From Escherichia phage EJP2, in sequence record OQ411014.1: a stretch of 64,000 nucleotides of DNA; one strand, 5' to 3'. Below, in pieces: positions 3,879 to 55,333 of this stretch. Every line of letters begins with the position of its first letter. Within the stretch, counting starts at the first letter, position 1. The position numbers were made by a program, and so were the translations under genes. A model generated the notes under the pieces. That model worked only from the letters and a program-made list of their open reading frames with translations. It searched no databases and was not told where the DNA came from.

Positions 3879-4736
3879 ATGCGTTTGAGATTGGTTATTT
3901 CCAGTGCAGATGATCAGTTGTGGGTTAGGCCAGCGGACAGTACTAGACGTGTTCGTCTACCATCAGTTCATGGTCATACCTTTATTGTTGAGAACAAACA
4001 ATCAACATTAGAAGAAGCCTTTCGTCTATTCATTGGTGATTATGAATGTAAGCCATTCAATGACTATCATTGCACTTATGAAGTTGTTGATATTCCTGAT
4101 GAGTACATGTTCCAGTTGGCACTATTAGGCGTTCATGAGATGGACTTCCTTGTGTACAATAACGTCACTAAGAAAATGGCAATTTGTTCAGCAGTACATT
4201 TGGCTGTTGAATATACAATGGCAACTAATTCCAAGGTAGGTTATAACCAATCTTCTTATCGTAATAGTACTGCTACTACTAACGATGTTGTATTCCAGTG
4301 GGAGTACAAAAGTGACGAGTGGAAGACTAAGAACGATGATGTTACTGTTCATACAGTACTGGATAGTACTTATGATAATATCTATCAGTACATTGAGCCT
4401 AACCTAATGGAATGGGCTTGTAGGATGTACAGTAACATTGCTGATACTTTACGTCCTAGAGTTTATGGGTTCAAGAACTGGAAAAGTAAGATTGATACAT
4501 CTGATGAACCAGTAGCGTATGAAAAGTCCTACCCGTACTATAACTTCAGTGATTTATATTTCCTGTTCAATCAGTACTGCAACGATGAAGCGATGTTTTT
4601 GTACGCACAGGATGTAATCTCCGATTCAGCAATTGAGATATTGCGTGAACTGTACTGTCATTGTCAGTTTATCAGTACTAACATTCAGGTCGGCAAGGAT
4701 TACATAAAATTCTGTGATGAAAGAAGATCACGATAA
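3879..4736 (+). CDS. hypothetical protein
   Basis: 285-aa ORF with RBS GAGG. Confidence 0.55.
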   Translation: MRLRLVISSADDQLWVRPADSTRRVRLPSVHGHTFIVENKQSTLEEAFRLFIGDYECKPFNDYHCTYEVVDIPDEYMFQLALLGVHEMDFLVYNNVTKKMAICSAVHLAVEYTMATNSKVGYNQSSYRNSTATTNDVVFQWEYKSDEWKTKNDDVTVHTVLDSTYDNIYQYIEPNLMEWACRMYSNIADTLRPRVYGFKNWKSKIDTSDEPVAYEKSYPYYNFSDLYFLFNQYCNDEAMFLYAQDVISDSAIEILRELYCHCQFISTNIQVGKDYIKFCDERRSR

Positions 4737-4737
4737 T

Positions 4738-4767
4738 TTGAGCATTCATAAAAAAATGTGATATAAT
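4738..4767 (+). promoter_or_regulatory. sigma70-type promoter with extended -10 (TGaTATAAT)
   Basis: TTGAGC 4738-4743 and TATAAT 4762-4767; nearly identical to the promoter at 58672-58701. Confidence 0.55.
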
Positions 4768-4773
4768 TAGTAC

Positions 4774-5320
4774 TACGGATGGTTAGCTATCCGTATTTTA
4801 AATTTGAATGACCAGTACTACATACTGGTACGTTTTAACCCTGATTCACTCGAAAATGTAGAGGACAGTTGAGTACGCATTCAAGTACGTTCAGCAGAAG
4901 AAACCCGTTAGGTGTAGGCATAGTTTGTACCTCCCACGGCAATGTGGCTGATTAAACCATGAAGAGTAATACGATGACTCATGGCTTGCTTATGGCATGA
5001 TAGACATATAAGGATCGCTCCTTACCAAAATGTATAAGGGAATCTTATAAATTTTTGTAGGACTGATTAGAGGCTTACCCTTGATCCGTCCAAAATTTGA
5101 AGATACAGTACAGTACTGTTTATGTGGTAATGTATTGATGCGTGCTAAGACCACGACCGTTGCATAGAAACGCGATAGGAAGAAACAGGGCAACCCGCTT
5201 CCGTTCTTAATAGAAATTCGTAACATAAAATGATGACACATACCAGCGTCAAACTTTGTTCTTCCCTCCCTGTGGGGGGATGAAAATGAATCTACAAAAC
5301 CTCGTCAAATAATAATAAGA
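4774..5320 (+). ncRNA. candidate structured noncoding RNA, copy A (unknown class)
   Basis: 740-nt gap between + genes with its own promoter and no conserved reading frame; shares blocks with the locus at 58.7 kb (CACUCGAAAAUGUAGAGG, GAAACCCGU, CACGACCGUUG, AAACAGGGCAACCCG, ACAAACCUCGUCAA); stem GGAAG/CUUCC at 5178-5202 covaries with GCUGG/CCAGC in copy B. Confidence 0.45.
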
Positions 5321-5476
5321 AAGTACTAAATCAATTAGAACGAACGCTAGTGAGTGATAATTGATTTAGTAACAGTAACGCTTCGCTAGAAGTGTTACTC
5401 GTTGTTTAAGAATAAAATAACTTAGTGAGTTTTGGTTCTTTTGTTGTTCACTAAGTCCCTATAGAGAGAATATTAG

Positions 5477-5998
5477 ATGCCAGTGAAATATAAATCCCTT
5501 GATGGTGTTGTGAAGTACAAAGATCAAATGACTGAACAGGAATTACAAGAGTTCAGTGGGTACAAAATCGAGGGCAGTGCGGCACGTATTTCATACATTG
5601 AAGAGTACAAAGACGGAGATTTACTAGGGAAAATTATCCTTAGAATGACAAAAGCCCCAATCATATTTCGGGTAGTATACAAGGGATATAATGAAATTCG
5701 GTACAATACTGGAAGTGTTTCATCTAGATATTGCAGTAATGGTGATGTTTTTTGTGGTGAAATGCTGAGATATGATATGAATGGGAAGCTACAGGTTCGG
5801 GACTTTTTGAATCTAGGCAAGAACGTAACTGATGATATTGTTACTGAATTTGGTATCTCTGATATACTACAGCATGAATTTACAGAAGAAGAGTTATTCC
5901 GACTCTATATGAAATACGATTCAGGATTTAGATTCGTATCGGAATATAATAGAACTCCTGAACACTTCGATTCAGTACTGAAGGCGTGTTTGGAATAA
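5477..5998 (+). CDS. hypothetical protein
   Basis: 173-aa ORF. Confidence 0.55.
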   Translation: MPVKYKSLDGVVKYKDQMTEQELQEFSGYKIEGSAARISYIEEYKDGDLLGKIILRMTKAPIIFRVVYKGYNEIRYNTGSVSSRYCSNGDVFCGEMLRYDMNGKLQVRDFLNLGKNVTDDIVTEFGISDILQHEFTEEELFRLYMKYDSGFRFVSEYNRTPEHFDSVLKACLE

Positions 5999-6013
5999 TA
6001 GGATATACAATTC

Positions 6014-6532
6014 ATGGATGATAAAAAATCAAAGATGGATATACACTTTTCATCTAAAGCTCAAACTTGGAATACTCCAAGAGATTTATGGAATAAAATA
6101 AATGCAGTATGGAAGTTCACTCTAGATGCTGCGTGTTTAGAAAATAGTGCCTTGTGCGAAAAGTACTTCACTCCTGAAGACGATTCATTAGAACAGGACT
6201 GGGGTGATAACATAGTATGGCTTAACCCACCCTATAACGACCTCAAGACTTGGCTATCGAAGGCAGTACAGGAATATAAGAAAGGCTCTACAGTTGTCAT
6301 TCTGGTCCCTTCTAGGACGGATACAAAGGCATTCCAGGACTATGCTTCTAAAGAATGTTCGTGTATTTGTTTTATTAAGGGAAGACTCAAGTTCTTTGAT
6401 CCAGCTAGACCACCTGATGCGAGGGCAGACCCAGCACCATTCCCTAGCTGTTTGATAGTACTGGATGATGATCTTACACAAGAGAAAATCGATTTTCTAA
6501 AAACTCTAGGTCAGGTAATGAAGAATGTCTAA
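6014..6532 (+). CDS. DNA N6-adenine methyltransferase (phage Dam-type)
   Basis: NPPY motif (VWLNPPYNDLKTW) typical of amino-methyltransferases; size fits small phage Dam family. Confidence 0.6.
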   Translation: MDDKKSKMDIHFSSKAQTWNTPRDLWNKINAVWKFTLDAACLENSALCEKYFTPEDDSLEQDWGDNIVWLNPPYNDLKTWLSKAVQEYKKGSTVVILVPSRTDTKAFQDYASKECSCICFIKGRLKFFDPARPPDARADPAPFPSCLIVLDDDLTQEKIDFLKTLGQVMKNV

Positions 6533-7064
6533 ACGCTGTGTCTTTATGTTCGGCAGAATGAACCCGTGCCACCTCGGACACGGGAAAGTATTTGAAAAAG
6601 CACTACAACTAAAGGATAATGAAACTGATGTGAAGTTGTTCCTTAGTGCTTCGTTTGATCCTAAAAAGAATCCACTACCAAGAGAAGTTCGTCAGTACTA
6701 CATATCTGAGTTCTTCCCTGAAATAAAAGATTCTATACAAGATACAAACATAAACAATTTATTTGATATAATGAAATCACTTGATACTTATTATAGTGAT
6801 GTAATATTCGTAGGTGGTTCAGACAGGGCGAGTTCCTTCCAAGAACTACTACTGAAGTACAATAACAAACAGTACTCATTCGATTCTATCAGTACTGTAC
6901 TAGCTGGAACATCAAGAGAAGAATCTATGTTCAGTTCTACTCTAATGCGTAATGCAGTACAGAAGGACGATTTCAGTACTTTCAAGATATGTCTCCCTGG
7001 GGATAATGAATACTTGAAGTACGATATGTTCGCTGGTGTAAAGAAGTACATGAAAAATATTTGA
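6525..7064 (+). CDS. HxGH-family nucleotidyltransferase (cytidylyl/adenylyltransferase-like)
   Basis: N-terminal FGRMNPCHLGHG (GxFxPxHxGH) and C-terminal SSTLMR (ISSTxxR-like) motifs; overlaps the methyltransferase gene by 8 nt. Confidence 0.55.
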   Translation: MSKRCVFMFGRMNPCHLGHGKVFEKALQLKDNETDVKLFLSASFDPKKNPLPREVRQYYISEFFPEIKDSIQDTNINNLFDIMKSLDTYYSDVIFVGGSDRASSFQELLLKYNNKQYSFDSISTVLAGTSREESMFSSTLMRNAVQKDDFSTFKICLPGDNEYLKYDMFAGVKKYMKNI

Positions 7065-7678
7065 CACCTATCTATAGCCATGATACTATATGTACATGGC
7101 TATTTCTATATGAAGGTACTATAATGAAAGCAAAAGATCTGTTTGATATGGTTCACTCCAATCGTAAGCACCAATTGAATATTAATAGATCATTCAAGTT
7201 TGGTCACATGGATGTTACATATATAAAGTCATTTGGTTCTGATTTATTCTTGGTTGAGCTTGCTCAAGCTGGTAAATCTAAACGAGTATGTGAAATAATC
7301 TATTGTCCTCTCGAAGAAGAAAATGATACTTATGTTCCAGTTAAAGTATTTGATACTAAAGTCAAATTATCCAAGACTGAAATTGAGTTTGGTTTTCCGG
7401 TGGATGAAAAATTGAAGGATACAATTCGGTTTGTTCCGACTGATTTCAAAACTCCAGCATTTGATATAGACTTCAGTACTGAAGAATCGGCTTCACAAGC
7501 TATGTTCATTCATGATTTCGACCCCAAGAACTGTGAGTACCTAATGGCGGCTACACGTGCATTACAAGAAGTGTACCACCAGCCTGGATATGGGTACATG
7601 ATTATTTCGAGTACTTCTCCGGCATTACTGTGTGATGTACTAGGGATTGAAGTCCAAGTAGGAGTATACAATGCGTGA
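7061..7678 (+). CDS. paralogous early-gene family member
   Basis: C-terminal motif SASQAMFIHDFDP matching the shared E-x-x-F-Q/S-A-S/T-h-V-x-D/E-h-D module. Confidence 0.55.
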   Translation: MTPIYSHDTICTWLFLYEGTIMKAKDLFDMVHSNRKHQLNINRSFKFGHMDVTYIKSFGSDLFLVELAQAGKSKRVCEIIYCPLEEENDTYVPVKVFDTKVKLSKTEIEFGFPVDEKLKDTIRFVPTDFKTPAFDIDFSTEESASQAMFIHDFDPKNCEYLMAATRALQEVYHQPGYGYMIISSTSPALLCDVLGIEVQVGVYNA

Positions 7679-8222
7679 TAAAGTTCAACACATATTGAAT
7701 TGTATGCAGAAGAAAGTTCACGTTCAGAATGATGTACTTGATATGCAAGTATATACAATTCTATCTTCAGAAGATGGCGTGTTTAGTTCAACTATTCGAT
7801 GCCGCAATAAAAATAGCGGTTCCTTTACTATTATGCTAAGGAAGAAGACTGAAATGATTACTGCTCCTAGTTCAGTACTGGGACAAAACGACACATACAA
7901 TACAGTTTACACTTCTCTTGCAATGAAGATGGCAATCTTCTGTACGCATGGTAATCCCCTACACATTGTTCGTGGGGATAGTACAATAGGTGATGATGTC
8001 GTTCAGGATTTGAGTGACGAAGGTTTCTTTCGCTTGTTATTGGCAGTTGACCCGAAGTATAATATCGATATAGATGGGTACAAGCAGGTTCTTGAAATGA
8101 TTTATGCATTCGAAGAAGTAGTACCTGAAGATTGGACTATTGTTATTAGCTCACCATTAGATAATTTACATTCAATAGATGTTGATTCTATCTATTCAGT
8201 ACTGAAGGATGTCGTAGTATGA
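7671..8222 (+). CDS. hypothetical protein, possible family member
   Basis: DEGFFRLLLAVDP resembles the family motif; start overlaps the upstream gene. Confidence 0.5.
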   Translation: MRDKVQHILNCMQKKVHVQNDVLDMQVYTILSSEDGVFSSTIRCRNKNSGSFTIMLRKKTEMITAPSSVLGQNDTYNTVYTSLAMKMAIFCTHGNPLHIVRGDSTIGDDVVQDLSDEGFFRLLLAVDPKYNIDIDGYKQVLEMIYAFEEVVPEDWTIVISSPLDNLHSIDVDSIYSVLKDVVV

Positions 8223-8788
8223 ATGCCGCAGAGTTTGTTAGAGCACTTGTTGGTTTAGCTAAAGTGAAAACTTATAGAGGAAATATCACTAAATCAAATT
8301 CGCATTTTGTTCCACGTAATGGTCGTGAACATCTATTCGTTGATTCATTACTCATCAAGGGTATCGATGCATATGAAGAAATATACATTTCTATAGATAT
8401 GTGTGATGGATTCTTGAATTCCATTGCAGTTCATACAAGAAATAGATATACTCATTTCTCTATGTACAGAAAAACGGCATACACAGAGTATGATAAGTAC
8501 GCAATGGAAGAAACCTCCCCAGGGCGTTTCCTTATGCTTTTTCACAATGAAATTACCGAGCGTGATTTAATCATGAATCACAAGGGTGAATTTATTGTGC
8601 ACATGGACAATGAAAGTGAAGTGTTCAGTACTTTATTAGTACATAACTTCGATATAGAAAAGTACAGAGAAATTCATGAAACCTATAAGTGCATTGATGA
8701 ACTTAAAACTGACCTCTCATTCAGTACATATGATACTAATTGTGGTCTGAATTTCGCAGCACTATATCAAATTATATGGAAGGCATAA
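8219..8788 (+). CDS. paralogous early-gene family member
   Basis: motif ESEVFSTLLVHNFD; ATGA overlap with the upstream gene. Confidence 0.55.
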   Translation: MNAAEFVRALVGLAKVKTYRGNITKSNSHFVPRNGREHLFVDSLLIKGIDAYEEIYISIDMCDGFLNSIAVHTRNRYTHFSMYRKTAYTEYDKYAMEETSPGRFLMLFHNEITERDLIMNHKGEFIVHMDNESEVFSTLLVHNFDIEKYREIHETYKCIDELKTDLSFSTYDTNCGLNFAALYQIIWKA

Positions 8789-9309
8789 TGACTGCACTAA
8801 ATGATTTCATGACTCTCAGTACTGAAATAGTATCTTCTACAAAGGGAGAAATCACAATCCCCCGTGATGATGTATATATTATACTAACACCAGGAATAGC
8901 AGAGTCCATAAAAGTATACGAAAATAATGATTCTTTACAAGTACTGTACATGCCACAAGATTATCTTTTTGTAAATTCTGATTTTACTTTACATCAATTT
9001 CCTACGTATAGTAATTTTCAACAACGTTTCCCAAGTGATAAAACAAAAGAAATAAAATACGTACAGTACGATAATAGTTTTAAAAGTCGTACTCATTTTA
9101 TCGCTTTAGAAACTGAAGAAGATATATTCAATGCTATGATAGTACATTCATTTGATATAAACGCAGCACTAGAATTGATGAGTGTATTGACTGAAGTACC
9201 GGAAGATGTAACAGGTATTATTACTATAAGAACTAAGTACAATGAAGAATTGTTACTAAAGTGCAACAGTATGATGCGAGATTATATTAGTAATAAGGAA
9301 AACACATGA
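8788..9309 (+). CDS. paralogous early-gene family member
   Basis: start moved to the ATG overlapping the upstream TAA (N-terminus MTALNDF parallels MTVLNDF of the next gene); motif EEDIFNAMIVHSFD; close paralog of 9306-9836. Confidence 0.55.
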   Translation: MTALNDFMTLSTEIVSSTKGEITIPRDDVYIILTPGIAESIKVYENNDSLQVLYMPQDYLFVNSDFTLHQFPTYSNFQQRFPSDKTKEIKYVQYDNSFKSRTHFIALETEEDIFNAMIVHSFDINAALELMSVLTEVPEDVTGIITIRTKYNEELLLKCNSMMRDYISNKENT

Positions 9310-9836
9310 CAGTACTGAATGATTTTCTTAGAGATAGTAAGTACATTATTGATAATATTGCTGAAGAAATATCTATACCATCAATGGATGAGTTGATGAT
9401 GATATCAATGGACCCTGATGGTGGGTTGGTAAAAGTATATTACGATTTTGAACTGCACGTAATGTTCATGAAAAATCATTATGAACACGCTTCTGATATG
9501 TTGACACTTTATGATTTTGGGACGCATAAAAATTACCAACAACGTTTACCAGCAAACAAATCAAAGGATATGAAACTAAGTGTTTACAATTCTGCTGGTG
9601 TTACTATTCCGACTAAGATTTCTCTTGGTTCTGAAGAGGGAATCTTTTCTGCGGAATTAGTACATGATTCCAGTACTGAAGAAGCACTTGAAGTTATGCA
9701 AGTAATTTCTGAAGTACCTGACAGTACCAAAGGAATACTTACTATAAGAAATAAGTACAACGAACGATTACTTATAAAATGTAATGTGTTATTAGAACAA
9801 TATATACATGGAGTACTGAATGCAAATATGGTATAA
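9306..9836 (+). CDS. paralogous early-gene family member
   Basis: motif EEGIFSAELVHD; internal FGTHKNYQQRLPANKSK parallels FPTYSNFQQRFPSDKTK of the previous gene. Confidence 0.6.
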   Translation: MTVLNDFLRDSKYIIDNIAEEISIPSMDELMMISMDPDGGLVKVYYDFELHVMFMKNHYEHASDMLTLYDFGTHKNYQQRLPANKSKDMKLSVYNSAGVTIPTKISLGSEEGIFSAELVHDSSTEEALEVMQVISEVPDSTKGILTIRNKYNERLLIKCNVLLEQYIHGVLNANMV

Positions 9837-10113
9837 TGTAGTACAGAAGGATTGGGATGATAATGAAAAGACAGGGATGCGTTTCATTTCTGTTATCATT
9901 TCGAATGAAACTCGTTATGTTCTACGAGCGGATAAGAATGATGGCGTATGGGAATCATCTTTGTATCCAATGGGTTACAAATATTCTTTAGATGATGTTG
10001 CAAGTCTAGCTGATTCTATGATAGACTCAGTAAAGATTATGAAGTTCCTTGAACGTCCAGAGCTAACAACGGCTGATGATGTACAGGAATTTTTGGCGAC
10101 TTTACAAGGGTAA
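9820..10113 (+). CDS. hypothetical protein
   Basis: 97-aa ORF. Confidence 0.45.
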   Translation: MQIWYNVVQKDWDDNEKTGMRFISVIISNETRYVLRADKNDGVWESSLYPMGYKYSLDDVASLADSMIDSVKIMKFLERPELTTADDVQEFLATLQG

Positions 10114-10115
10114 TT

Positions 10116-10634
10116 ATGAAACTTTCTGACTTCATTGCACGCAAAGATTCGTTCAAAAATGGCGTTTTTCATCAAGTAGAAGGTACTGACTTTACATATA
10201 TCAGTACTAGTATTGGATTGGGAGAAGCATCGAGTATCGTATCTTTTTATACAAAAGAAACACTTGCTATATGTGATTTTGTATTTTCAACTAAACATTA
10301 TAATACCACAGACAATGCAATTATGTTCGATGCAAACTCAGTGAATGATGCTTGGTGTGTATATTTTTCTTATCCAAATACAAATGAAAATATAGTATTA
10401 TTCTTGGATGATTCAGAAGATAACGAGCCACCAGTACTGGTAGATATCTCATCAGAAGCGGATATCTTCACTAAAGCAGTAGCATTCGATATAAATTGTG
10501 ATGGTATTGAAGAGTACATTTCGATTTCCAAAGCAATCGAAAAAATTGCCAAGGATTTGGGATTACCGGAATTTACTCTAGAACTTCGTCACAATAAACT
10601 GAAGGAATTTCTTGAGATATTTGAACTATGCTAA
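10116..10634 (+). CDS. paralogous early-gene family member
   Basis: motif EADIFTKAVAFDIN. Confidence 0.55.
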   Translation: MKLSDFIARKDSFKNGVFHQVEGTDFTYISTSIGLGEASSIVSFYTKETLAICDFVFSTKHYNTTDNAIMFDANSVNDAWCVYFSYPNTNENIVLFLDDSEDNEPPVLVDISSEADIFTKAVAFDINCDGIEEYISISKAIEKIAKDLGLPEFTLELRHNKLKEFLEIFELC

Positions 10635-10873
10635 TAATTGACAATTTAGACATACCTGGTGAATTCGAAGTACTCGAAGGGATTAGTATGAGTACGTTCG
10701 TAATAAAAAGTACTGAAGCGTGGGTGAAAAAACACTTGACTGAATTAGGGTTATCCGATACACTACACTTCTTTAGTTACAGTACTGGAGATTTAGTTTT
10801 AGAATCGACAAGAGCGAGGATTACGAGTTTAAGTTCTAAGCGATTTTATGTTGAATTTATGGAAGGAGAATGA
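10628..10873 (+). CDS. hypothetical small protein
   Basis: 81-aa ORF overlapping both neighbours by a few nt. Confidence 0.45.
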   Translation: MLIIDNLDIPGEFEVLEGISMSTFVIKSTEAWVKKHLTELGLSDTLHFFSYSTGDLVLESTRARITSLSSKRFYVEFMEGE

Positions 10874-11442
10874 CAATGATCAATAGTAATACTTATATGC
10901 GTTACCTACGTATGGGCGTTTCTTTAGTTCCAGTTCGTGGAAAAGATTCAGTAGACCAAGAGTTCGCATATGCGATGCCTATTGATGGTGTACAGTACGT
11001 ACTGAACGATGGTGGTATGTACGAAGATACAAATGAGTCCGAAGACATGTCTGATATGCTTCAGAACTTATTAGCAGTAGTCAATAGTGACCGTCATGAT
11101 AAAGTAAAACGCGTTACTACGTTCCTGGAAAAGAATCTACACAAAACTGTTTGGTGTGAGATTGCTTCTGGACCACAACTGGGTTTGCTATTCGGGAACG
11201 CAGATGGTACAATTTGTCAATTAGCGATGGATTTCCGTTCTCCAGAGCAGTTCCAAGAGTACCGTGCATCTATCATCGAACACTTTGCAGCACTCGGTCT
11301 TGACGAATCTAAGATTCCAGAAATTAGTCCAATGGATACATTTGTACTGATTCCTGAGAGTCCAGCATTCGAAGCACTATTCAGTACTTTCCAGTGCTTA
11401 GGGATTGAAGTAAGTCCAGCAGATGTAGATGATGAAGAATAA
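10870..11442 (+). CDS. hypothetical protein
   Basis: 190-aa ORF with acidic C-terminus. Confidence 0.5.
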   Translation: MTMINSNTYMRYLRMGVSLVPVRGKDSVDQEFAYAMPIDGVQYVLNDGGMYEDTNESEDMSDMLQNLLAVVNSDRHDKVKRVTTFLEKNLHKTVWCEIASGPQLGLLFGNADGTICQLAMDFRSPEQFQEYRASIIEHFAALGLDESKIPEISPMDTFVLIPESPAFEALFSTFQCLGIEVSPADVDDEE

Positions 11443-11493
11443 TTAGTACTGTATATGTATACACCTTTACGATAAAGTCTTAAATATCTGAAG

Positions 11494-11724
11494 GTGTATA
11501 TTGTCATAGGAGGAAAAGTTATGAAATATTCATTGATTCGTTTAGGATTATTTGTTACAGTAGTCTTAATGGTTGTGATTGGTTCAGTACTGACACAGTT
11601 ATACCCTGCGTTTATTTTACTCGCTGGGATTTTTGGTTCAGTACTGATTGGGCTGGTGGGTTGGGCTTTGCAGCTTACCATCGATGCGGAATTAGAAAAG
11701 AGGATTAAAGATAAAGATGAATGA
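11494..11724 (+). CDS. small membrane protein
   Basis: 76 aa, two hydrophobic helices, RBS GGAGG. Confidence 0.55.
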   Translation: MYIVIGGKVMKYSLIRLGLFVTVVLMVVIGSVLTQLYPAFILLAGIFGSVLIGLVGWALQLTIDAELEKRIKDKDE

Positions 11725-11876
11725 TAAAGGTGAAGAGGAAGTCTTCTGTACTGCGTGCAATCTGTACGTACAACCTGAATACAGTTCGTACTCATGTATT
11801 TCACAGTACGGTTCATCAGTGTTCTGTAAAGAACTCTGTCCTATTTGTTATAAACAATTTCGGGAATTTTTAGTCG

Positions 11877-12566
11877 ATGCAGACATTTGATAATTCAATC
11901 AACATCAGTACTGAACTATTAAAAGTACTAAAAGTGATTTATAGTTTCAGTACTGAAGAGTTGTTGAAAGTACTACCAGAGAGTGTATCTAAACGAGAAA
12001 ACGAATATAAGTGCGTTTTTGATATACAACAAGATGTACAATTTCAAGTTCAAATTAACTACAAAGACGATTTGAATTATCGCAGTACTAATATTTCCAT
12101 TCTTGATGTGCGTCGCGGCGTAACAATGAATGGGACAATTCCATGTATCTTAGCTTTAGGTACATACGCAGCGAATAAATCAGAACCATCTATCATTTGT
12201 AACTACTCCCAAAGTAAAGAATTTATGGTTCGATATCATTCATTGACCGAAAATCCTGCTTATACAAATGTCAGTACTGATGGCAATTCACTTAGAATGA
12301 ATCGAATCAAGTACTACGAGATTGATGATATTTTTGATGAAGGTGCAGTATTCCAACATTCAATTATGCATGAGTTCGACCCTAATAGTATTCTGTTATT
12401 ACAGAAGATGGTCACTGTTGGGGATTACATCAGTACTAAATGTAATTCCAATAAAATCCTTGTCTCGGCTGATGAAGATAAGTTAGATGGTCTGTTGGAT
12501 TCACTTCTAAAGATTGATGTTGTTAGTAAATTCATTTCCTTATATGAAGGTACAGAATGGTCATAG
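11877..12566 (+). CDS. paralogous early-gene family member
   Basis: motif EGAVFQHSIMHEFDP. Confidence 0.55.
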   Translation: MQTFDNSINISTELLKVLKVIYSFSTEELLKVLPESVSKRENEYKCVFDIQQDVQFQVQINYKDDLNYRSTNISILDVRRGVTMNGTIPCILALGTYAANKSEPSIICNYSQSKEFMVRYHSLTENPAYTNVSTDGNSLRMNRIKYYEIDDIFDEGAVFQHSIMHEFDPNSILLLQKMVTVGDYISTKCNSNKILVSADEDKLDGLLDSLLKIDVVSKFISLYEGTEWS

Positions 12567-13180
12567 CCAATAAAGGTTTAGAAATCATTGAAATTGCACC
12601 GGATGAAGTTCAAATGGAAGTTGAAGTAATGTATCCGTGCAACATTGAACAGTACTGCAAACAGGGATTACAGTACTTAGAAGAAATGCAAGTACTACTT
12701 GATTCTCCTGATTGTATCGATAATTATACCAAATACACAACTGTAACCAGAACTACACCAGAATTGGAATTGATTGGTATTCGATATTGCAACACACGTC
12801 TCCCATCAATTATTACTACAGTTAAATTTACTGAAGTAATGTTGCTGGAAACATTTAGATGGCCTAAAACGTTACAAAGTCATTTCAATTCAATACGTTT
12901 TGGTGAAGATGAATACATTATCATGTGTGAAGATCCTAAGTCCTACAAATATGTAGTGATGGTCGAGCAAGATGAAGTATGCACAATTGAAGATATCAGA
13001 GACGAAAGTTCTTTATTTCAGGCTTCATTAGTTTCTGAATTAGATCCGTGTATACAGGAGTATCTCATCAAACATCACGAACTGTACTTGCGTGCAATTA
13101 GTAATGAGAACAAAGAGATTACTACTCTATGTACTACTCTGGCAGGTGGTGATTACTACGCAGAGAGGCAGTACTTATGA
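12557..13180 (+). CDS. paralogous early-gene family member
   Basis: motif ESSLFQASLVSELDP. Confidence 0.55.
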   Translation: MVIANKGLEIIEIAPDEVQMEVEVMYPCNIEQYCKQGLQYLEEMQVLLDSPDCIDNYTKYTTVTRTTPELELIGIRYCNTRLPSIITTVKFTEVMLLETFRWPKTLQSHFNSIRFGEDEYIIMCEDPKSYKYVVMVEQDEVCTIEDIRDESSLFQASLVSELDPCIQEYLIKHHELYLRAISNENKEITTLCTTLAGGDYYAERQYL

Positions 13181-13716
13181 ATGCCTTAGAACATATTGTA
13201 AAATACTTCAGTACTGCACAACCTAATGGGTATGCGTTGTTTCATGCAATGTTTCATTATGAACGAGAACCACTAGCAATTGAGCGTTATTATCAAAACG
13301 AGAAAACGCACTTCTTGATTCATGTTCGGGTCGGTTCAAAGATTGAAACTCTAAAAATGTACTATAATCACAAAGAATATCCGAAGAAAATTATAATGAT
13401 TCAATCGTCACCTACAAATAGTTTTATACATTTGATGAGTAATTATAAGACACAATTTTTAGATGATGCCAATAGTAATGTGTGTATTATGGGCGTTGAG
13501 GGAAAGGAATATAACTTCAATGCATTTGATGAATGTGCATTATTCCAGGCCAGTACTGTATGTGATATTGATGTGGATTTCATTTCAAAATCTATGTTGA
13601 CATTACAGAATATTTCGGATAGTATTAGTAGTGTTGTTACCTTACAAGGAACCAAAGGTGTAATCGATGAACTTTGTAATCTCAGGATTGATTCGATTAT
13701 GCGATTAGCTTCATAG
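13177..13716 (+). CDS. paralogous early-gene family member
   Basis: motif ECALFQASTVCDIDVD. Confidence 0.55.
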   Translation: MNALEHIVKYFSTAQPNGYALFHAMFHYEREPLAIERYYQNEKTHFLIHVRVGSKIETLKMYYNHKEYPKKIIMIQSSPTNSFIHLMSNYKTQFLDDANSNVCIMGVEGKEYNFNAFDECALFQASTVCDIDVDFISKSMLTLQNISDSISSVVTLQGTKGVIDELCNLRIDSIMRLAS

Positions 13717-13771
13717 TAATAGATTCAAAAAAATTTATAAAAGTGCAAATAATCACAAGGAGTGTGAATAT

Positions 13772-14506
13772 ATGTTAGATCGTATAAAATTTGCCCAGGA
13801 GATGGCGAATGAGCTAAACAAATCAAATTTCCAAACTGTATCACCTATTATGGCTGAGTATGCTACTGCATATGCAACAGATGGAGTTCAGTGTGGACAG
13901 GCGAATATGTTAGCGGACGTGTACAGTACTGTGCAGAGTAAGCAATTCTCTGTTAAGACGTACAAAGATAAATTCGTATCTTCATTCATGAAGGGTGAGA
14001 TTGCAGAAGATCGTGAGTTCACAGATCCTATCATTGAGCGTAGGATTTCTGGGGTGGCGAATCCGAATGCTGATCCATCGTTAGTCTTTGAGGAAGTACT
14101 GAATGATATTCGAGACAATGAACGCAGAAGTCTAAACCACTACGGTATTAATTCCACTGGAACAGTACTGTTAGGATTCAGCGAAGATGATGATTATTTT
14201 TACTTTCGTCTAACTGAATATGATTATGTGTATGATGCTCCCGCTTCAGTACAAGAGAAGACCTTCACAGAACGTAGTAAAAACTACCTAAAACATACAG
14301 GAAATCGTTGCGGAATCGAATGCTACAACACTGAAGGTGTTATGGTGTACGAATGGGTTCACCCGAACAATCAGGCTTATACACGCTGTCTGAAGAAGCG
14401 GTACGACCTACGTGATGCTGATTCTATGTATTTCAAAATCAAGAAGCAGAAGTACACCAGACCTGATGATAATGCATTGTTGGATATGGTTAGTATTCAC
14501 TTCTAA
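13772..14506 (+). CDS. hypothetical protein
   Basis: 244-aa ORF with RBS AAGGAG. Confidence 0.55.
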   Translation: MLDRIKFAQEMANELNKSNFQTVSPIMAEYATAYATDGVQCGQANMLADVYSTVQSKQFSVKTYKDKFVSSFMKGEIAEDREFTDPIIERRISGVANPNADPSLVFEEVLNDIRDNERRSLNHYGINSTGTVLLGFSEDDDYFYFRLTEYDYVYDAPASVQEKTFTERSKNYLKHTGNRCGIECYNTEGVMVYEWVHPNNQAYTRCLKKRYDLRDADSMYFKIKKQKYTRPDDNALLDMVSIHF

Positions 14507-14515
14507 ATCAATTAT

Positions 14516-14545
14516 GCAGTACTGCGATTGTAGTACTGCTTTTTT
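14516..14545 (+). terminator. intrinsic terminator with AGTACT-containing arms
   Basis: GCAGTACT...AGTACTGC stem followed by a T6 run. Confidence 0.6.
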
Positions 14546-14556
14546 CTGGAGATGCT

Positions 14557-15111
14557 ATGAATAATCTTGAGTTCGTTAAACACTTGGCTAATAAAGTTGA
14601 TACAATCGCACAGAAACATATTGACACTCAAAGTTCAATACCTATAAAATTAGCGATTCCTCATGATAATATGGAACTGTTCGATAGATTCTTTTCTGTT
14701 CGAGGCCGCCACGATAAAGATAGATATCTTTTACTCGACACTGACCGGAATGCTTTTCAGTACTCAACACCTACGTTTCCTGGAATTTTCATGAAAGTGT
14801 CTGATGGATTGTACCTTACGTACTCACCACCAGATATATCACAGACTATGATTGGATTGGATTCTAGGGTATTACTATTTCAGCCACGCAATCCAAGTGA
14901 TGTATATGATCCGTATGAATTCTTGACTGAAGAAATGCACTTCCAGGCATCTACAGTACTGGATATTCCGAGCATAGAAACTCTAAGAGAAATGCTTGAT
15001 ATTGTTGAGTTTTTGATTGAAAGTGAATTCAAATTTAGATGTTCAATGGACTACGATGATTACCAGAGTATTCAGATTGGTCGTTTTTATAATTACGCAA
15101 TGCAGGAATAA
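14557..15111 (+). CDS. paralogous early-gene family member
   Basis: motif EEMHFQASTVLDIP. Confidence 0.55.
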   Translation: MNNLEFVKHLANKVDTIAQKHIDTQSSIPIKLAIPHDNMELFDRFFSVRGRHDKDRYLLLDTDRNAFQYSTPTFPGIFMKVSDGLYLTYSPPDISQTMIGLDSRVLLFQPRNPSDVYDPYEFLTEEMHFQASTVLDIPSIETLREMLDIVEFLIESEFKFRCSMDYDDYQSIQIGRFYNYAMQE

Positions 15112-15115
15112 CCAA

Positions 15116-15727
15116 ATGAAGAATCTAGATAAATTTGAAGACCTTATCAGTACTGCAAAAGCGTTCGGGTATTATAATTTCATCCAACGCTTTGGCCTCA
15201 AAGAAGAAAGTAACCGTTTCTGTAAAGTATATCGTGGTATCTGTACTGAAGATTCGGAGTATCAGTTCTTGATTGGAACTATGCGTTCTAGTGGTGGGAT
15301 TACATACATCGTTGAAGATAATAAAACAGGTGAGTACTTGAACATGTTCGCTCTTCGGGCAGAAGGTGAATCTGAACTTACTGCGATGTTTAAAGACTGG
15401 ACACGACTATCATACAAATACGATAAGTTCAACATCTACAACTACGAAACCAAGAAGATGGAAGTTGTACCGAACATTGACATGTCTGAAGATGAACATT
15501 TTCAGTTCATGCTATTGCATGATATTCCAGATTATGATACAGTACAGTCAGTACTGAAATATCATAAAGAAGTTTCACCAATGCTCAAAGAACATAAGCT
15601 ATTCAATATCATCACGTACACGATGCCTGATTTTGATTTCACAAAGATGAAAATCAAACCTGAAGTAATTGACACGTGTATGGATTTGATACCTGAATCA
15701 TCTTTATACAAACACAAGGATATATAA
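15116..15727 (+). CDS. paralogous early-gene family member
   Basis: start set to the ATG at 15116 just after the upstream stop (track ORF begins 15017); motif EDEHFQFMLLHDIP. Confidence 0.5.
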   Translation: MKNLDKFEDLISTAKAFGYYNFIQRFGLKEESNRFCKVYRGICTEDSEYQFLIGTMRSSGGITYIVEDNKTGEYLNMFALRAEGESELTAMFKDWTRLSYKYDKFNIYNYETKKMEVVPNIDMSEDEHFQFMLLHDIPDYDTVQSVLKYHKEVSPMLKEHKLFNIITYTMPDFDFTKMKIKPEVIDTCMDLIPESSLYKHKDI

Positions 15728-16866
15728 TGACTACAATGCGTGAACTATATGACGATTTGAATGCATTAGTATCTGATGCTTTCTATCACAAAGATTTCGT
15801 TAGTAAAGGCTCTGGTACGTACCGGATTTTCTCGTACCGTCTAGCGAGTGCTGCTGACTTCGAAGAACGTAATGCCCTTGAGTCACGTGGTATTATGTTC
15901 GAGATTGATGCAGATACTAAAGAGCCAATTCGTATTGCTTCTCGGACTATGAAGAAGTTTTTCAATGCAGGGGAAACCCAAGAATTACAGTTCAAGAAGG
16001 ACGTACCATTCAGTACTATCAAGTGCGTAATGCCTAAGTTGGATGGTTCTGTTATTGCAACCTTCATGGACAATGATGGAATTATTCGTACTAAATCAAA
16101 CTCTTCGTTGGAGTCTGAGCACGCGTATTACAGTACTGAAATGATTCACGCCAATGATAAGTTACACGATGCAATCATTTGTGCTGAAGCTGCTGGTTAT
16201 ACTGTAATTATGGAATTTACTTCACCTGAGTACCGGATTATTCTTCCTTACCAGAAAGATGAACTAACTGTATTGCGTATCATTCATCGTGAAAGTGGTG
16301 AAAGCATTATGGGTTCTGACTTGAAGGAGAAGTTCCCAGTACTGTATGAGTTTTCGGTATTTGGTGATAAAGACATTCATGAATCATTCCCTGTTCGCAG
16401 TACTTTAGTACAGAGTATTGCTGCTGTTCGTGAAATGGAAGAGATTGAGGGATATGTTGTAGTACTACAAGATGGCACTACATTCAAGCTCAAGACGGAT
16501 TGGTATTGCAATTTACATTTTACCAAAGATAGTATTATCATTGATTCTCGACTATTCAAGGCAGTACTGGATGGTAGTTCAGATGATTTACGTCAATTGT
16601 TTGAAAATGATGAATATGCACTAAAAAAAGTCGAAAAAATGGAAAATTTGATTTTTTTGTGCTATAATAAGTTAGAAGAGGATGTGACTACTTTTTACGA
16701 AAAGTACAAGCACCTTGATCAAAAAACGTATGCTATGAAGGTGTTGGGTGAATTATCGAAAGATATGAACCGACAAGGACTTGCATTCAACTTGTACAAT
16801 GGTAAACCTGTTGATTACAAAGAAGTACTACTAAAGTACATGAAGAACGTGTTAGAAGGATTCTGA
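15727..16866 (+). CDS. rnlA: RNA ligase 1 (T4 RnlA-like)
   Basis: N-terminal TYRIFSY...RGIMFE...RIASR.MKKFFN and the lysine motif KLDGS match my recollection of T4 Rnl1; 379 aa. Confidence 0.85.
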   Translation: MTTMRELYDDLNALVSDAFYHKDFVSKGSGTYRIFSYRLASAADFEERNALESRGIMFEIDADTKEPIRIASRTMKKFFNAGETQELQFKKDVPFSTIKCVMPKLDGSVIATFMDNDGIIRTKSNSSLESEHAYYSTEMIHANDKLHDAIICAEAAGYTVIMEFTSPEYRIILPYQKDELTVLRIIHRESGESIMGSDLKEKFPVLYEFSVFGDKDIHESFPVRSTLVQSIAAVREMEEIEGYVVVLQDGTTFKLKTDWYCNLHFTKDSIIIDSRLFKAVLDGSSDDLRQLFENDEYALKKVEKMENLIFLCYNKLEEDVTTFYEKYKHLDQKTYAMKVLGELSKDMNRQGLAFNLYNGKPVDYKEVLLKYMKNVLEGF

Positions 16867-48881: not shown

Positions 48882-51581
48882 ATGACTAAAAGAATTTATG
48901 GAGGCTTAGACGTTACTCATAACGTAACAGTTCAGGGCAAAAGGACAGTACAAGGTATCAATAATCAAGTATTCGATGCGAATGGTGATATGAAGATTAA
49001 TACCTATACTCAACAGGAATTACTCGATATTGTTAGCTTAATGCCAATATCACACTACGGTACTCACAACTACTTACCTGCTGGTGTTAGTGGGGACTTT
49101 AATGGTGCAGCGGAGAACCCAGCACAACGTAGAAACAAAATCCTACTGGAGAACGATGGTACACTAGTAATGCTACGTGCTGGTACAAACGGCAGTGTAG
49201 AAGGTTTATTCTATGCTTACCTACCAAATGCACTATCAGTTACTGATTTAGGTAGAGGTGTAAACACTGGTCGTCAGTACAAGCCAGGTTATTTTGGTAG
49301 TACTAAAACTGCTTTCGGTTTGTATAATACAGATGAGAACATTCTTCTAGGAAGATATTCTGATTCGTCAAATGGCAGTACTGGATGGTTTATTTCCATT
49401 ACTAACGGAACACTAGATGACACACAACATAATGGTTTCTTCTTGAATGCTTATACTGATATTGCCCCTCAAGGTGGTGTTGAATATGCAATGATGGCAG
49501 AAGATGGTTCAATTTACGTATTCAGTGTAGATACAAGTAATAACGAATTTAATATTGCAGTTGTTAGAGTTACTTTCAATTTGACGAATAAAACTTACAC
49601 AGCGTCAAGAATCACTGGTTGGACAACCAAGACGTTCTATAATACTACATATTCAGCAGATACTAATATTGTAGTGACGAAGAAAGTAAACTCAACTAAT
49701 ATCGCTGATAAGCCATATATGTACGTTCCGAATGGACTACTTGGTTTAGGTGTATACATGACGTCAATTGACTTGTGTGTAGCACAACAGCCAGGTACAC
49801 AGAACTTCCGCTTTAGAGTTAATGGTGATGCGTGGGCTACTATGGCAACGTATAATACCAGACCACAGCACAGTTATAGTTTCAACTTCAATATGAGTAC
49901 TAAACAATGTACGCTGGATGCAGGGAATGACATTGGTTCAAACGCAGCACCATTTATTGTTACTAATACAGGTTCACAATTAATTGCTTCTGGTAACGTA
50001 ATCAACCAAGATGATTTATATAATCACGGTGGGTGGAGAAACATTTATAGTTCTTACTATTACTTGGATATTGGTACAGTATTCTGTACTACGAGTCCTA
50101 ACTTGTCAGAACCATTGGGGATTGAAAAAGCAACATACCCAGCACAAAGTGTTTACAGTATGCTTAACGTAAGAGCAGTCAATGCATCAGCATTCAATAA
50201 AGGGAATCTTGGTCCTTCGTTCGGTTCAGCAGTTGGTTCTTACATTAACGGCGTAGAATTACTACCAGGTAACAGTACTAAACAATTCTCTCGTTCTTCT
50301 GGTACTGGTGCATTTAGACCATCATATGCAGTACATGCTGCTTCACCTACCTTTACGTTTAAATCTCTTTCAAGAGGTACAATGAAAGGTTATGAGCCTA
50401 CTGCTGAACGTGATTTCATTACAGATAATATAAACAACCGTATTTTCATTAGTACTGTATCTGGTTCGAATGTTACGACAAATGGTGGGATTTTCATGGT
50501 TGGTCAACGTTATTCACAGTCTTTGTCATTTGACAAACATGGTGTTGGTACTGGAACAATCTCGGTCACTGATTCAGTACTGGTAAATTTCAGAAATTCT
50601 GAATATGCAAAAGTACCTGCTTCATGGAATCTTTCTACAGCAGCAACTAAAGATATGACACTATTTGTTCCACAACAAACTGATATTCCTGCTTTTGTAA
50701 TGTTAAGTACTGTTACTACTGGAAATAAAAACTATATTAAGATTGTGGAAGTGAACGTTAATACCAGAAGTGGTAATATTACTTCAATTAGTTTTAAGCG
50801 TAATGTAATTGAAAACGTTTATGGTGATAGTTTTACACCAAATGGTGCTGGTGGTTTTGCTTCATCTTCTGTAGGTTTAACAATATATGATGGCGGTTCG
50901 TTCTACTTTATTGGTGGTTCAGATCCTTTATCTCACCCAACAATTGGCAATACGAATACACATCAATTCAGAGCTATTGTTACTAAAAGTACTGCACAAT
51001 TTGACAGCTTTATTATTTCAGGTTCACATGCTAGTTATGAACAGGGTATTCAACCTGCTGCTCTTCCTGGTATTGGCTTTGGGTATTTCCAAGCAATTGA
51101 CTACTCAAACAAAATGACATTCCAGAAATGTGGTACTACTGTTGCTGAATATAATGCATGGACAGCAATTGGTGATCCAATTAACGTAGTTTCACAAGAC
51201 GTTGCACAAGGATTTGTTGTTTACTTCAACGAAGAAACACCAGTAATGCTCAGTGGTAAGTCATTTACGATGCCAGTTCAAAGTGTTGATTTGAAAACTA
51301 TTAAAGCTAACCCAGCGAATACGACATTCCACATTTATGTGAGAATGAACCAAGGTAATGCAGAATATCATATAACTACTGAAGTTATTTCCGAAACTGG
51401 TAGTACTGCATATAACGTATTCTGGATTGGTACTGTTACTACGGATGCTATCCAAATCTCGACTATTAATGTATTCAAGCGTTCTCGTTTGGATGTATTT
51501 GGTGCATCACTTGAACCAACCGGATCATCATTCCCAGTGAGTTATGGTCTACCATCAGGCAACGGAACAATTAACTGGTAA
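48882..51581 (+). CDS. tail fibre / receptor-binding-like structural protein
   Basis: 899 aa, S/T/N/G/Y-rich and poor in charged residues; C-terminal ~110 aa module shared with the next two genes. Confidence 0.6.
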   Translation: MTKRIYGGLDVTHNVTVQGKRTVQGINNQVFDANGDMKINTYTQQELLDIVSLMPISHYGTHNYLPAGVSGDFNGAAENPAQRRNKILLENDGTLVMLRAGTNGSVEGLFYAYLPNALSVTDLGRGVNTGRQYKPGYFGSTKTAFGLYNTDENILLGRYSDSSNGSTGWFISITNGTLDDTQHNGFFLNAYTDIAPQGGVEYAMMAEDGSIYVFSVDTSNNEFNIAVVRVTFNLTNKTYTASRITGWTTKTFYNTTYSADTNIVVTKKVNSTNIADKPYMYVPNGLLGLGVYMTSIDLCVAQQPGTQNFRFRVNGDAWATMATYNTRPQHSYSFNFNMSTKQCTLDAGNDIGSNAAPFIVTNTGSQLIASGNVINQDDLYNHGGWRNIYSSYYYLDIGTVFCTTSPNLSEPLGIEKATYPAQSVYSMLNVRAVNASAFNKGNLGPSFGSAVGSYINGVELLPGNSTKQFSRSSGTGAFRPSYAVHAASPTFTFKSLSRGTMKGYEPTAERDFITDNINNRIFISTVSGSNVTTNGGIFMVGQRYSQSLSFDKHGVGTGTISVTDSVLVNFRNSEYAKVPASWNLSTAATKDMTLFVPQQTDIPAFVMLSTVTTGNKNYIKIVEVNVNTRSGNITSISFKRNVIENVYGDSFTPNGAGGFASSSVGLTIYDGGSFYFIGGSDPLSHPTIGNTNTHQFRAIVTKSTAQFDSFIISGSHASYEQGIQPAALPGIGFGYFQAIDYSNKMTFQKCGTTVAEYNAWTAIGDPINVVSQDVAQGFVVYFNEETPVMLSGKSFTMPVQSVDLKTIKANPANTTFHIYVRMNQGNAEYHITTEVISETGSTAYNVFWIGTVTTDAIQISTINVFKRSRLDVFGASLEPTGSSFPVSYGLPSGNGTINW

Positions 51582-51590
51582 GGAGAAATT

Positions 51591-52178
51591 ATGCCATTAC
51601 AATACAGAACGGACGTGAACGCAGCAGGACAAATTAAAGTACAGAATAAAACAACTGGTGTTTCTATTACATCAGGTAACGGTCAAGTATATTCTACAAC
51701 ATCTGCGGGGGCGATTACGTTCCCAGTACTGACAACTGATGATGTGGATTATATTACACTTGAATTACCACTCTCTCAGTTCGGAGAATTGTATGAGAAT
51801 ACTAGTCTTAATATTACAAGTACTGGTTTAGTACTGAAGTTTAATAGAATAATTCCACTCTTCATGAGTGGGATTTACTACGATGTTCCAGTTCAGAACA
51901 TCACAGCACAAGCTGCAACGTCAGGTACAGCAACATATTATGTGTATGTTAAACTAGAACTTGGTGCACCAAAATATTTCATCTCCAGAACAGAAGGTGT
52001 TGAGAACGAAATAACCATGTTCATAGGTACTATCACAGTAAGTACTACCACAATAACAGCAATCAATATTAACAAAGTTTCCAGATTCGGTACATACAGA
52101 CCGAGTACTACACAGAAAGGTTCTTCTTTCCCTGTCAGTACTGGACACCCTTCACAAACTGGTTCAATTAACTGGTAA
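51591..52178 (+). CDS. short paralog carrying only the fibre C-terminal module
   Basis: 195 aa; C-terminus RFGTYRPSTTQKGSSFPVSTGHPSQTGSINW matches the endings of both flanking large proteins. Confidence 0.55.
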   Translation: MPLQYRTDVNAAGQIKVQNKTTGVSITSGNGQVYSTTSAGAITFPVLTTDDVDYITLELPLSQFGELYENTSLNITSTGLVLKFNRIIPLFMSGIYYDVPVQNITAQAATSGTATYYVYVKLELGAPKYFISRTEGVENEITMFIGTITVSTTTITAININKVSRFGTYRPSTTQKGSSFPVSTGHPSQTGSINW

Positions 52179-55021: not shown

Positions 55022-55333
55022 ATGCAATACAGAACACCAGTACTGATCAATCGATACAAAAGTAAAGACTTTGATGTTTACATTGGTCGTGGGACAAAAT
55101 GGGGAAACCCGTTCCCAATCGATGAAGCATGTGGTCAAACTCGCCTAATCGTTATTGAAATGTACAGACACCAAATGTATGAATGGCTAGAAAATGGAAC
55201 CATCACTGTTCAGGATATTTTGGATTTATCGGGAAAAACCATTGCATGTTCTTGTGCACCAAAGGCATGTCATGGAGATATAATCATAGAGGTATTCAAT
55301 GAAATAGTGAGTATGATGAATGCAGGAACATAA
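55022..55333 (+). CDS. DUF4326-like protein
   Basis: YIGRGTKWGNPF motif near the N-terminus, as I recall for DUF4326 proteins. Confidence 0.45.
   Translation: MQYRTPVLINRYKSKDFDVYIGRGTKWGNPFPIDEACGQTRLIVIEMYRHQMYEWLENGTITVQDILDLSGKTIACSCAPKACHGDIIIEVFNEIVSMMNAGT

Follow-up and report, generated by a model that had tools for sequence, protein, structure and literature searches.

Escherichia phage EJP2 carries, within a 64,000-nucleotide stretch of its genome (OQ411014.1; hereafter the window, to which all positions refer), a cluster of small open reading frames (ORFs) that share a short conserved motif in their C-terminal part. Eleven of these ORFs lie on the + strand at 7124-15727, bounded on the left by a cytidylyltransferase-like gene and on the right by the gene for RNA ligase 1 (Rnl1), and a twelfth stands apart at 55320-55721 (Table 1). 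A Dam-type methylase gene (6014-6532) lies upstream of the array and a polynucleotide kinase gene downstream, and the + strand carries 80 of the 88 window ORFs of at least 100 amino acids (aa). Judged by profile comparison, the twelve ORFs are one lineage-specific protein family, encoded by real genes and confined to a sub-clade of the Rak2-like jumbo phages of the T4 superfamily. Together they occupy about 10% of the window (6.7 kb).

The initial annotation of this DNA had described a tandem run of consecutive, diverged paralogues at this place. The motif-bearing ORFs proved to be real, as described, and they do cluster, but they are not consecutive: five non-member genes are interspersed, and the members fill four slots between conserved genes. 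The start of the first member, originally placed at 7061, moves to 7124; this start, like those at 8788 and 15116 of the fourth and last members, agrees with how the genes are called on a metagenomic contig (L006) whose proteins are 86-100% identical to those of the window. The ATGA overlaps that had been noted are present at 8219, 9306 and 13177, and there is another at 10870. Shine-Dalgarno-like sequences lie upstream of members, and start/stop overlaps join neighbouring genes.

Pairwise phmmer comparison among the members detects the close pair D and E, whose paralogy had been recognized from the outset (E = 6.5e-36; 40% identity), and, weakly, C and D, but no others, and the claim of a family therefore needed profile tests. 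Each of the 11 members in the interval was left out in turn, and a hidden Markov model (HMM) built from the remaining members was run on the 178 window ORFs that are 60 aa or longer. In all 11 tests the omitted member was placed first or second among the 178; its E value lay between 9.5e-9 and 0.085, and its best alignment always spanned the motif. If the tests are assumed to be independent, such an outcome would be expected by chance with a probability of about (2/178)^11. The sole ORF ever to score above an omitted member, which it did in 10 of the 11 tests, was 55320-55721, and as it carries the same motif (EDRFFQRSLLFDLS) it is the twelfth member. The weakest member, B, had been listed at first as a possibility and is now included on its leave-one-out rank; its E value in the final HMM is 2.2e-17, but B was part of the training set for that model.

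The same relationship was found beyond the window. Iterated on the syntenic regions of relatives, the family HMM recruited more motif-bearing ORFs. A database-wide profile search with word-based pre-filtering returned 25 proteins, and 45 (E<=1e-3) were obtained when 1.84 billion cluster representatives were searched exhaustively with the HMM; all of the proteins from both searches are 120-240 aa long and contain the motif. The family sequences fall into about 25 BLAST subfamilies with less than 20% identity between subfamilies, and for 9 of the 12 window members only near-identical homologues were found among 15 billion proteins. In an all-versus-all hhalign comparison of subfamily profiles, 26% of the pairs within the family reached P<0.01, against 1% of the pairs between the family and control profiles made from the interspersed conserved genes of the locus. 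The L and M subfamilies, for example, align over 81 columns (P = 1.3e-4), and several alignments extend over 90-120 columns, so that the homology reaches beyond the motif.

An alternative would be that the motif is a chance or compositional likeness among unrelated small ORFs. The sparse pairwise matches (D/E and, weakly, C/D) are in keeping with this, as is the finding that most single members are not separated from unrelated ORFs by narrow profiles of L and M; a motif HMM made from orthologues of L and M only is too narrow, and within the window it finds just those two. However, chance likeness does not account for the leave-one-out ranks, for the shared predicted architecture described below, or for the recurrence of the motif at syntenic positions in relatives on which the model had not been trained. 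Furthermore, with RNA ligase 1 as the anchor, 79 loci were collected from IMG/VR, and in the 62 that have no Rak2-type landmarks (mostly on contigs of about 160-230 kb, a T4-like size) the HMM produced no false positives at all. This alternative is effectively refuted.

At its centre, the module of the window members reads [S/T]-E-E-x-x-F-Q-x-S-[T/L]-h-x-D-h-P, and weighting by subfamily gives the consensus [S/T/D]-E(83%)-E-x-x-F(96%)-Q(80%)-x-S(70%)-[T/L]-h-[Y/H]-D-h-(P)-D. The distance from the beginning of the motif to the C-terminus is 57-78 residues, where the earlier estimate had been 40-60. Only the E and the F are near-invariant, and the positions conserved above 80% are limited to M1, a Pro before the motif, and the E, F and Q within it; weaker conserved positions lie in the N-terminal helix and in the helix that follows the motif. 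No conserved constellation of catalytic-type residues, such as an enzyme would show, was found in the family. As just two residues are near-invariant, and as the Q and S are replaced in members B-F, we read the motif as a structural signature and not as an active site, and the pattern of conservation argues for a non-enzymatic scaffold.

With the family alignment, AlphaFold2 models member M (mean predicted local distance difference test, pLDDT, 85; predicted template modelling score 0.77) as a helix (4-25), nine consecutive strands, the motif helix (125-134), a second helix (140-159), a strand and a C-terminal helix, and member D is modelled with the same order of elements. The predicted fold is thus a compact alpha/beta arrangement of an N-terminal helix, a meander sheet of 8-9 strands, a helix-turn-helix, a strand and a final helix. 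Within this fold the motif is predicted to form the first C-terminal helix, with an acidic N-cap and a D-h-P turn, and its invariant Phe would anchor this helix on the sheet. When M and D were searched with Foldseek against BFVD, all of the matches were independently predicted models of uncharacterized proteins of Rak2-like jumbo phages, three targets being common to both; they include proteins of RaK2, GAP32, Yersinia phages fHe-Yen9-03/04 and Erwinia phage pEa_SNUABM_47. Runs of adjacent accessions among these matches suggest that similar arrays occur in other genomes, and the fold probably extends beyond the proteins that make up the sequence family. Kinship with the folds of p32/Mam33, frataxin, Ugi and LolA-like proteins was considered and rejected after structure comparison (Z <=6.3).

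The members are related to one another and match no well-characterized family, in agreement with the earlier remark that no known domain is present. Scans of the members gave nothing at the gathering score in Pfam-A, no matches in NCBIfam, chance-level matches only in PADLOC and no significant match among PDB sequence profiles (best E = 0.24). Among the PHROGs, member M alone matches phrog_32531 (E = 4.3e-17), a group of unknown function that gives no functional information, and other subfamilies match separate PHROGs (28118, 34636, 31297, 38478 and others), all likewise of unknown function. With a limit of E<=0.01, eight of the 10 window members scanned remain without a PHROG, and a separate PHROG scan gave no match for J. 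Orthologues of M were found by tblastn in 41 phage records, all annotated as hypothetical. What is divided in PHROGs into many unconnected clusters is treated here as one family.

The number of members varies widely between related phages. In megablast the array region has no match among GenBank phages, and in blastn it shows 65-72% identity, in patches, to Rak2-like jumbo phages of about 350 kb, namely Erwinia phage Hallingskeid, Xanthomonas phage XbC2, Salmonella phage 7t3, Escherichia phages PBECO4/121Q and Pectobacterium phage CBB. When the four slots are taken in order (cytidylyltransferase to 9820, 9820 to 10870, 10870 to 13772, and 13772 to Rnl1), both the window and L006 contain 5/1/3/2 members (total 11), the metagenomic contig L009 1/1/5/3 (10), Hallingskeid 1/0/3/2 (6), 7t3 0/0/1/4 (5), PBECO4 and phAPEC6 0/0/0/2 (2), and CBB and XbC2 0/0/0/0 (0); GAP32- and RaK2-type phages also have none in the interval. 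All but one of the L009 members were absent from the training set, and their recovery in the same slots is therefore an independent validation of the family. Fifteen of the IMG/VR loci are syntenic and Rak2-like; ten of these contain no member, and the others contain 2, 4, 5, 5 and 6. The order cytidylyltransferase-9820-10870-13772-Rnl1 is kept in all complete annotated phage and metagenomic loci and in 14 of the 15 IMG/VR loci, the remaining one (L012) having no detectable orthologue of 9820.

Between these fixed landmarks, a slot may hold from 0 to 5 members among the loci compared, and the totals run through 11, 11, 10, 6, 5, 4-6, 2 or 0. The local amplification and strong divergence proposed in the initial annotation are thus borne out: a copy number of 0-11 among related phages is a real, lineage-specific gene expansion, with the largest set observed in the lineage of the window (11 in the interval and one elsewhere in the window). 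The family is the main source of difference in gene content between related jumbo phages at this locus.

Work by Comeau and Krisch reportedly describes hyperplastic regions (a 'plastic periphery') in T4-superfamily genomes, where small genes of unknown function sit in variable slots. The EJP2 locus resembles these regions in its variable content of small genes between core genes of conserved order, but here the slots hold mainly diverged copies of a single family and not unrelated ORFans, and EJP2 is a Rak2-like jumbo phage of about 350 kb. The expansion also fits what has been said in general about the abundance of paralogues in jumbo phages: about 10% of RaK2 proteins are paralogues (PMC3622015), 22 paralogous ORFs are listed for CBB (PMC5259590), and a zinc-ribbon protein is present in about 35 copies in Bacillus phage G (Iyer et al. 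2021, PMC7824862). In the portions covered here, none of these three papers gives an account of the family, of its motif or fold, or of the way in which copy number changes from slot to slot.

The members also evolve faster than their neighbours. Between the window and L006, pooled nonsynonymous relative to synonymous change per site (pN/pS) is 0.42 for the members and 0.11 for eight other genes in the stretch, and the nonsynonymous and synonymous differences number 76:46 and 14:36, respectively (Fisher p = 5e-5). All 11 reading frames are intact in both. Protein-level evolution is therefore about four times faster in the members, yet they are under purifying selection overall. Diversifying selection had been suggested for the array; the faster protein change is evident, but positive selection is not, as pN/pS is well below 1. 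The divergence between the window (3879-15727) and L006 is itself a mosaic, with synonymous divergence (dS) near 0 for the genes at 11877, 15116 and 10870 and of 0.11-0.15 for the Dam methylase, the cytidylyltransferase, E (9306) and J (13177), and this patchiness suggests recent recombination among co-circulating relatives.

Table 1. Family members, landmark genes and putative signals of the locus (LOO, leave-one-out rank among 178 ORFs and E value).
Feature	Position	Strand	Remarks
Cytidylyltransferase-like gene	6525-7064		Left boundary of array; Pfam PF01467
Candidate sigma-70-type promoter	7061-7089	+	TTGACA-17-TACTAT with TG; A/T-rich tract upstream; in gap before member A
Member A, 184 aa	7124-7678	+	EESASQAMFIHDFD, F replaced by S; LOO 2/178, 1.7e-4; start as in L006 gene call
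Member B, 183 aa	7671-8222	+	DEGFFRLLLAVD; LOO 2/178, 0.085; weakest member
Member C, 189 aa	8219-8788	+	ESEVFSTLLVHNFD; LOO 2/178, 4.7e-5; ATGA overlap with B
Member D, 173 aa	8788-9309	+	EEDIFNAMIVHSFD; LOO 1/178, 9.5e-9 with E also omitted; recent paralogue of E
Member E, 176 aa	9306-9836	+	EEGIFSAELVHD; LOO 2/178; ATGA overlap with D
Landmark, non-member, 97 aa	9820-10113	+	Orthologues in all five relatives L001-L005 (phmmer); phrog_14956, unknown function
Member F, 172 aa	10116-10634	+	EADIFTKAVAFD; sole member between conserved genes 9820 and 10870
Non-member	10628-10873		Orthologues in two of five relatives
Landmark, non-member, 190 aa	10870-11442	+	Orthologues in all five relatives; phrog_15575; hhalign to family P 0.13
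Non-member, 76 aa	11494-11724		Inside array
Member H, 229 aa	11877-12566	+	EGAVFQHSIMHEFD; hhalign to Hallingskeid 14944 subfamily P 5.9e-6
Member I, 207 aa	12557-13180	+	ESSLFQASLVSELD; hhalign with H P 4.5e-4, 89 columns
Member J, 179 aa	13177-13716	+	ECALFQASTVCDID; ATGA overlap with I; L006 homologue P0017 93% identical
Landmark, non-member, 244 aa	13772-14506	+	Orthologues in all five relatives; phrog_16105, unknown function; hhalign to family P 0.2
Terminator-like hairpin and T-run	14516-14539	+	Between conserved gene 13772 and member L
Member L, 184 aa	14557-15111	+	EEMHFQASTVLDIP; orthologues in Hallingskeid and metagenomes
Member M, 203 aa	15116-15727	+	EDEHFQFMLLHDIP; most widely conserved subfamily; stop overlaps RNA ligase 1 start
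RNA ligase 1 (Rnl1)	15727-16866		Right boundary of array
Distal twelfth member, 133 aa	55320-55721	+	EDRFFQRSLLFDLS; stop overlaps start of RlaP-like nucleotidyltransferase
Possible distant relative, 173 aa	5477-5998	+	EEELFRLYMKYD; HMM E 0.37; hhalign P 0.008

Two ORFs upstream of the array lie at the edge of the family. The ORF at 5477-5998, mentioned originally as a possible member, is at best a distant relative; the profile of its orthologues aligns with that of the family over 22 columns, motif on motif (P = 0.008). A conserved 285-aa ORF (3879-4736) contains DIPDEYMFQLALLGVHEMD, an internal stretch similar to the family motif (hhalign P = 0.016), and its counterpart in CBB, with EESMFQ, is a borderline HMM match (E = 0.017); this ORF may be a very distant relative or a chance resemblance. 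The landmark genes at 9820, 10870 and 13772 compare with the family profile at P = 0.13-0.2 and are thus non-members. The first of them, which divides slot 1 from slot 2, is conserved in all of the Rak2-like relatives. The last is the sole part of the region that can be aligned at the nucleotide level across genera (65-72% identity, 62 phage records), and it has no Pfam or PDB match. The 76-aa non-member ORF at 11494-11724 is very hydrophobic and probably encodes a membrane protein; L006 has a 67-aa gene call at the same place.

This last ORF also holds two copies, 54 bp apart, of a palindromic octamer, CAGTACTG, which occurs 102 times in the 64 kb (for example at 704, 7474, 9671, 11585, 11639, 14517 ... 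63627) against 1.3 expected and a maximum of five in 100 shuffles. The copies, about one per 630 bp, are spaced more evenly than random (coefficient of variation 0.64), and nearly all lie in coding sequence, in two of the three frames. The octamer is also present in L001-L007 and L009, its core AGTACT exceeds expectation 10-13-fold in each of the Rak2-like loci fetched, and in conserved gene 13772 a number of sites are kept in position. A literature search for the octamer found no description of it; it could be a protein-binding, modification or packaging-related signal, and its enrichment looks more unusual than the paralogue array itself. A link to the protein motif was rejected, as it is only in member A that the octamer encodes the S-T-E of the motif. 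GTAC exceeds expectation about threefold in the window, and GATC is under-represented (83 observed against about 217 expected from base composition) despite the presence of the Dam-family methylase gene.

Several other features of the window deserve mention. A stretch of 740 bp (4737-5476) has no + strand ORF and opens with a strong sigma-70-like promoter with an extended -10 (4738-4767), followed by a hairpin and T-run (4774-4795); a comparable gap lies at the same place in CBB, XbC2 and PBECO4. The stretch has no Rfam match (best E = 0.42) and no tRNA, and it may encode a novel RNA. A second local duplication is found at 48882-51581 and 52188-54941, which encode large paralogous proteins of 899 and 917 aa (phmmer E = 2e-70), with a 195-aa ORF between them (51591-52178) that is related to both (E = 1e-21 and 7e-18). 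Adjacent paralogues of 186 and 164 aa (59731-60291 and 60288-60782; phmmer E = 1.5e-15) share an ATGA-type overlap. Finally, a 415-aa RlaP-like nucleotidyltransferase of the RNA-repair pathway (55721-56968; Pfam PF10127, E = 3e-16; phrog_388) is one of several RNA-repair genes in the window, along with those for RNA ligase 1 and polynucleotide kinase.

What might these proteins do? Our preferred reading, which we hold tentatively and at somewhat less than an even chance, is that they are a family of non-enzymatic binders for host interaction, in takeover or in counter-defence. This reading draws on the scaffold-like conservation, the rapid divergence and the flux in copy number, and also on the anti-restriction and RNA-repair neighbours, the absence of two members from the phAPEC6 virion (see below) and the sigma-70-like promoter sequence at 7061-7089. 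A role in anti-defence or host takeover, as the initial annotation had proposed, is plausible from the context of the Dam methylase, RNA ligase 1 and polynucleotide kinase genes nearby, and the gene for the RlaP-like nucleotidyltransferase adjoins the distal member. We envisage that a family multiplied and diverged in the four slots would, with no conserved catalytic-type residues and with a variable remainder, most likely consist of non-enzymatic binders, each with a different partner. The proteins would probably be made from promoters of the host RNA polymerase alongside the repair and anti-restriction genes next to them and would act in host takeover or counter-defence, and the gain and loss of copies would follow the hosts met by each lineage. 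Early expression of the array is likewise something that we infer, the promoter-like site being the one local hint.

A number of observations weigh against this reading. The promoter at 7061-7089 is a consensus match only, in a region where sigma-70-like matches are not enriched (36 found against 55.7 expected), and the authors of the CBB study place the presumed early region elsewhere in that genome, according to the part of their report covered here (PMC5259590). A search of the literature for transcriptomes of this phage group yielded nothing relevant. A pN/pS below 1 fits relaxed constraint as well as it fits an arms race, and amino-acid differences between the window and L006 are about as frequent in the variable part (3.4%) as in the motif module (3.5%), so that at this depth there is no sign of a hypervariable binding surface. 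The D model (pLDDT 78.7) was confident in one of five runs only, and both models were made from family-wide alignments, which bias them towards a common fold. No homology of the members to a host target or defence system was found. The isoelectric points of the members are 4.3-5.9 and the window median is 5.2; as the members are no more acidic than the window background, the idea that they are DNA mimics finds no support.

The position of the members beside repair genes could also mean that they are accessory subunits of the nucleic-acid repair enzymes of the phage (RNA ligase 1, polynucleotide kinase and the RlaP-like nucleotidyltransferase), and that binding would tune the choice of substrate or protect these enzymes instead of striking at host proteins. 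The stops of M and of the distal member overlap the starts of the genes for RNA ligase 1 (at 15727) and the nucleotidyltransferase (at 55721), respectively, a match to M lies beside the RNA ligase 1 gene in all of the relatives examined for it (Hallingskeid, 7t3, PBECO4 and phAPEC6), and orthologues of M are as widespread as noted above. However, both RNA ligase 1 and the kinase are retained in CBB, XbC2 and the GAP32- and RaK2-type phages, whose interval is free of members. In PBECO4 a further ORF separates the M orthologue from the ligase, and eleven fast-diverging copies would not be expected of cofactors for two or three conserved enzymes; we therefore consider this unlikely. We are similarly doubtful that the members are largely dispensable duplicates, a by-product of recombination in a hyperplastic region, with most copies drifting under weak constraint and having no specific role. 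The elevated pN/pS, the free presence and absence among relatives (complete absence included) and the lack of orthologues of most members outside the lineage would all be explained in this way, but the 11 intact frames in both the window and L006, a pN/pS that is still well below 1, the tight translational coupling, and a motif and an order of secondary-structure elements kept across about 25 subfamilies at less than 20% identity are difficult to reconcile with it.

It is very unlikely that the members are packaged in the virion and ejected like the internal proteins of T4, with an N-terminus (M-x-x-L-D/E-x-F) that acts as a capsid-targeting signal. T4-type internal-protein loci are arrays of diverged genes; the T4 proteins carry a targeting peptide of about 10 residues (MKTYQEFIAE) that ends in a prohead-protease site (L/I-x-E), and one of them, IPI*, is an anti-restriction protein. 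EJP2 belongs to the T4 superfamily, the N-termini of its members are alike and loosely resemble the T4 sequence, and the locus is similar to that of IPI, IPII, IPIII and IP-like proteins in being an array of diverged small proteins that share a short segment. However, the signature of the T4 proteins is a cleaved N-terminal peptide, whereas that of the EJP2 family is an internal helix 57-78 residues from the C-terminus. The members have no conserved L/I-x-E site after the N-terminus, their N-terminal helix is predicted to lie within the fold (pLDDT 83-87), and neither the T4-late-type ATAAATA nor the late-type motif TATAAATA occurs between 4 and 17 kb. The T4 internal proteins are virion components; phAPEC6, a relative that does have a capsid inner body, encodes two members, gp378c and gp379c, and neither is among the 62 virion proteins identified by mass spectrometry (PMC7247149, Table 1), although this is a non-detection in one relative only. 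Taking the missing cleavage site, the placement of the helix and the virion list together, we rejected the idea of a T4 capsid-targeting sequence.

If the members are indeed host-interaction binders, a working model is provided by the Bcl-2-like and ankyrin/PRANC families of poxviruses, in which one scaffold is present in many diverged copies. Each copy in such 'genomic accordions' binds a different host factor, and copy number shifts with host pressure. The comparison is one of analogy only, with no relationship in sequence or structure. A more specific proposal, which we regard as a long shot, is that the motif helix (E-E-x-x-F-Q-x-S-T-h-x-D-h-P) is a docking element for one common hub while the variable sheets bind different targets. 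A phage enzyme could serve as this hub, as could a host machine (a protease, for example, or RNA polymerase), and the array would then be a set of interchangeable adaptors, the phage counterpart of the poxvirus ankyrin/F-box families. By that analogy, each copy could disable a different host defence or factor, and copy number could set host range.

In summary, about 25 formerly unconnected orphan clusters are now one family with a predicted fold that has no PDB counterpart, and this link gives annotators a handle on many of the 'hypothetical proteins' of Rak2-like phages. Should the members be dispensable, the locus would nonetheless illustrate clearly how the genomes of jumbo phages grow. If, on the other hand, they are inhibitors of host factors or defences, the array would amount to a compact collection of new inhibitors built on one scaffold, and the gradient from 0 to 11 copies would offer a ready-made comparative system in which copy number may be linked to host range.

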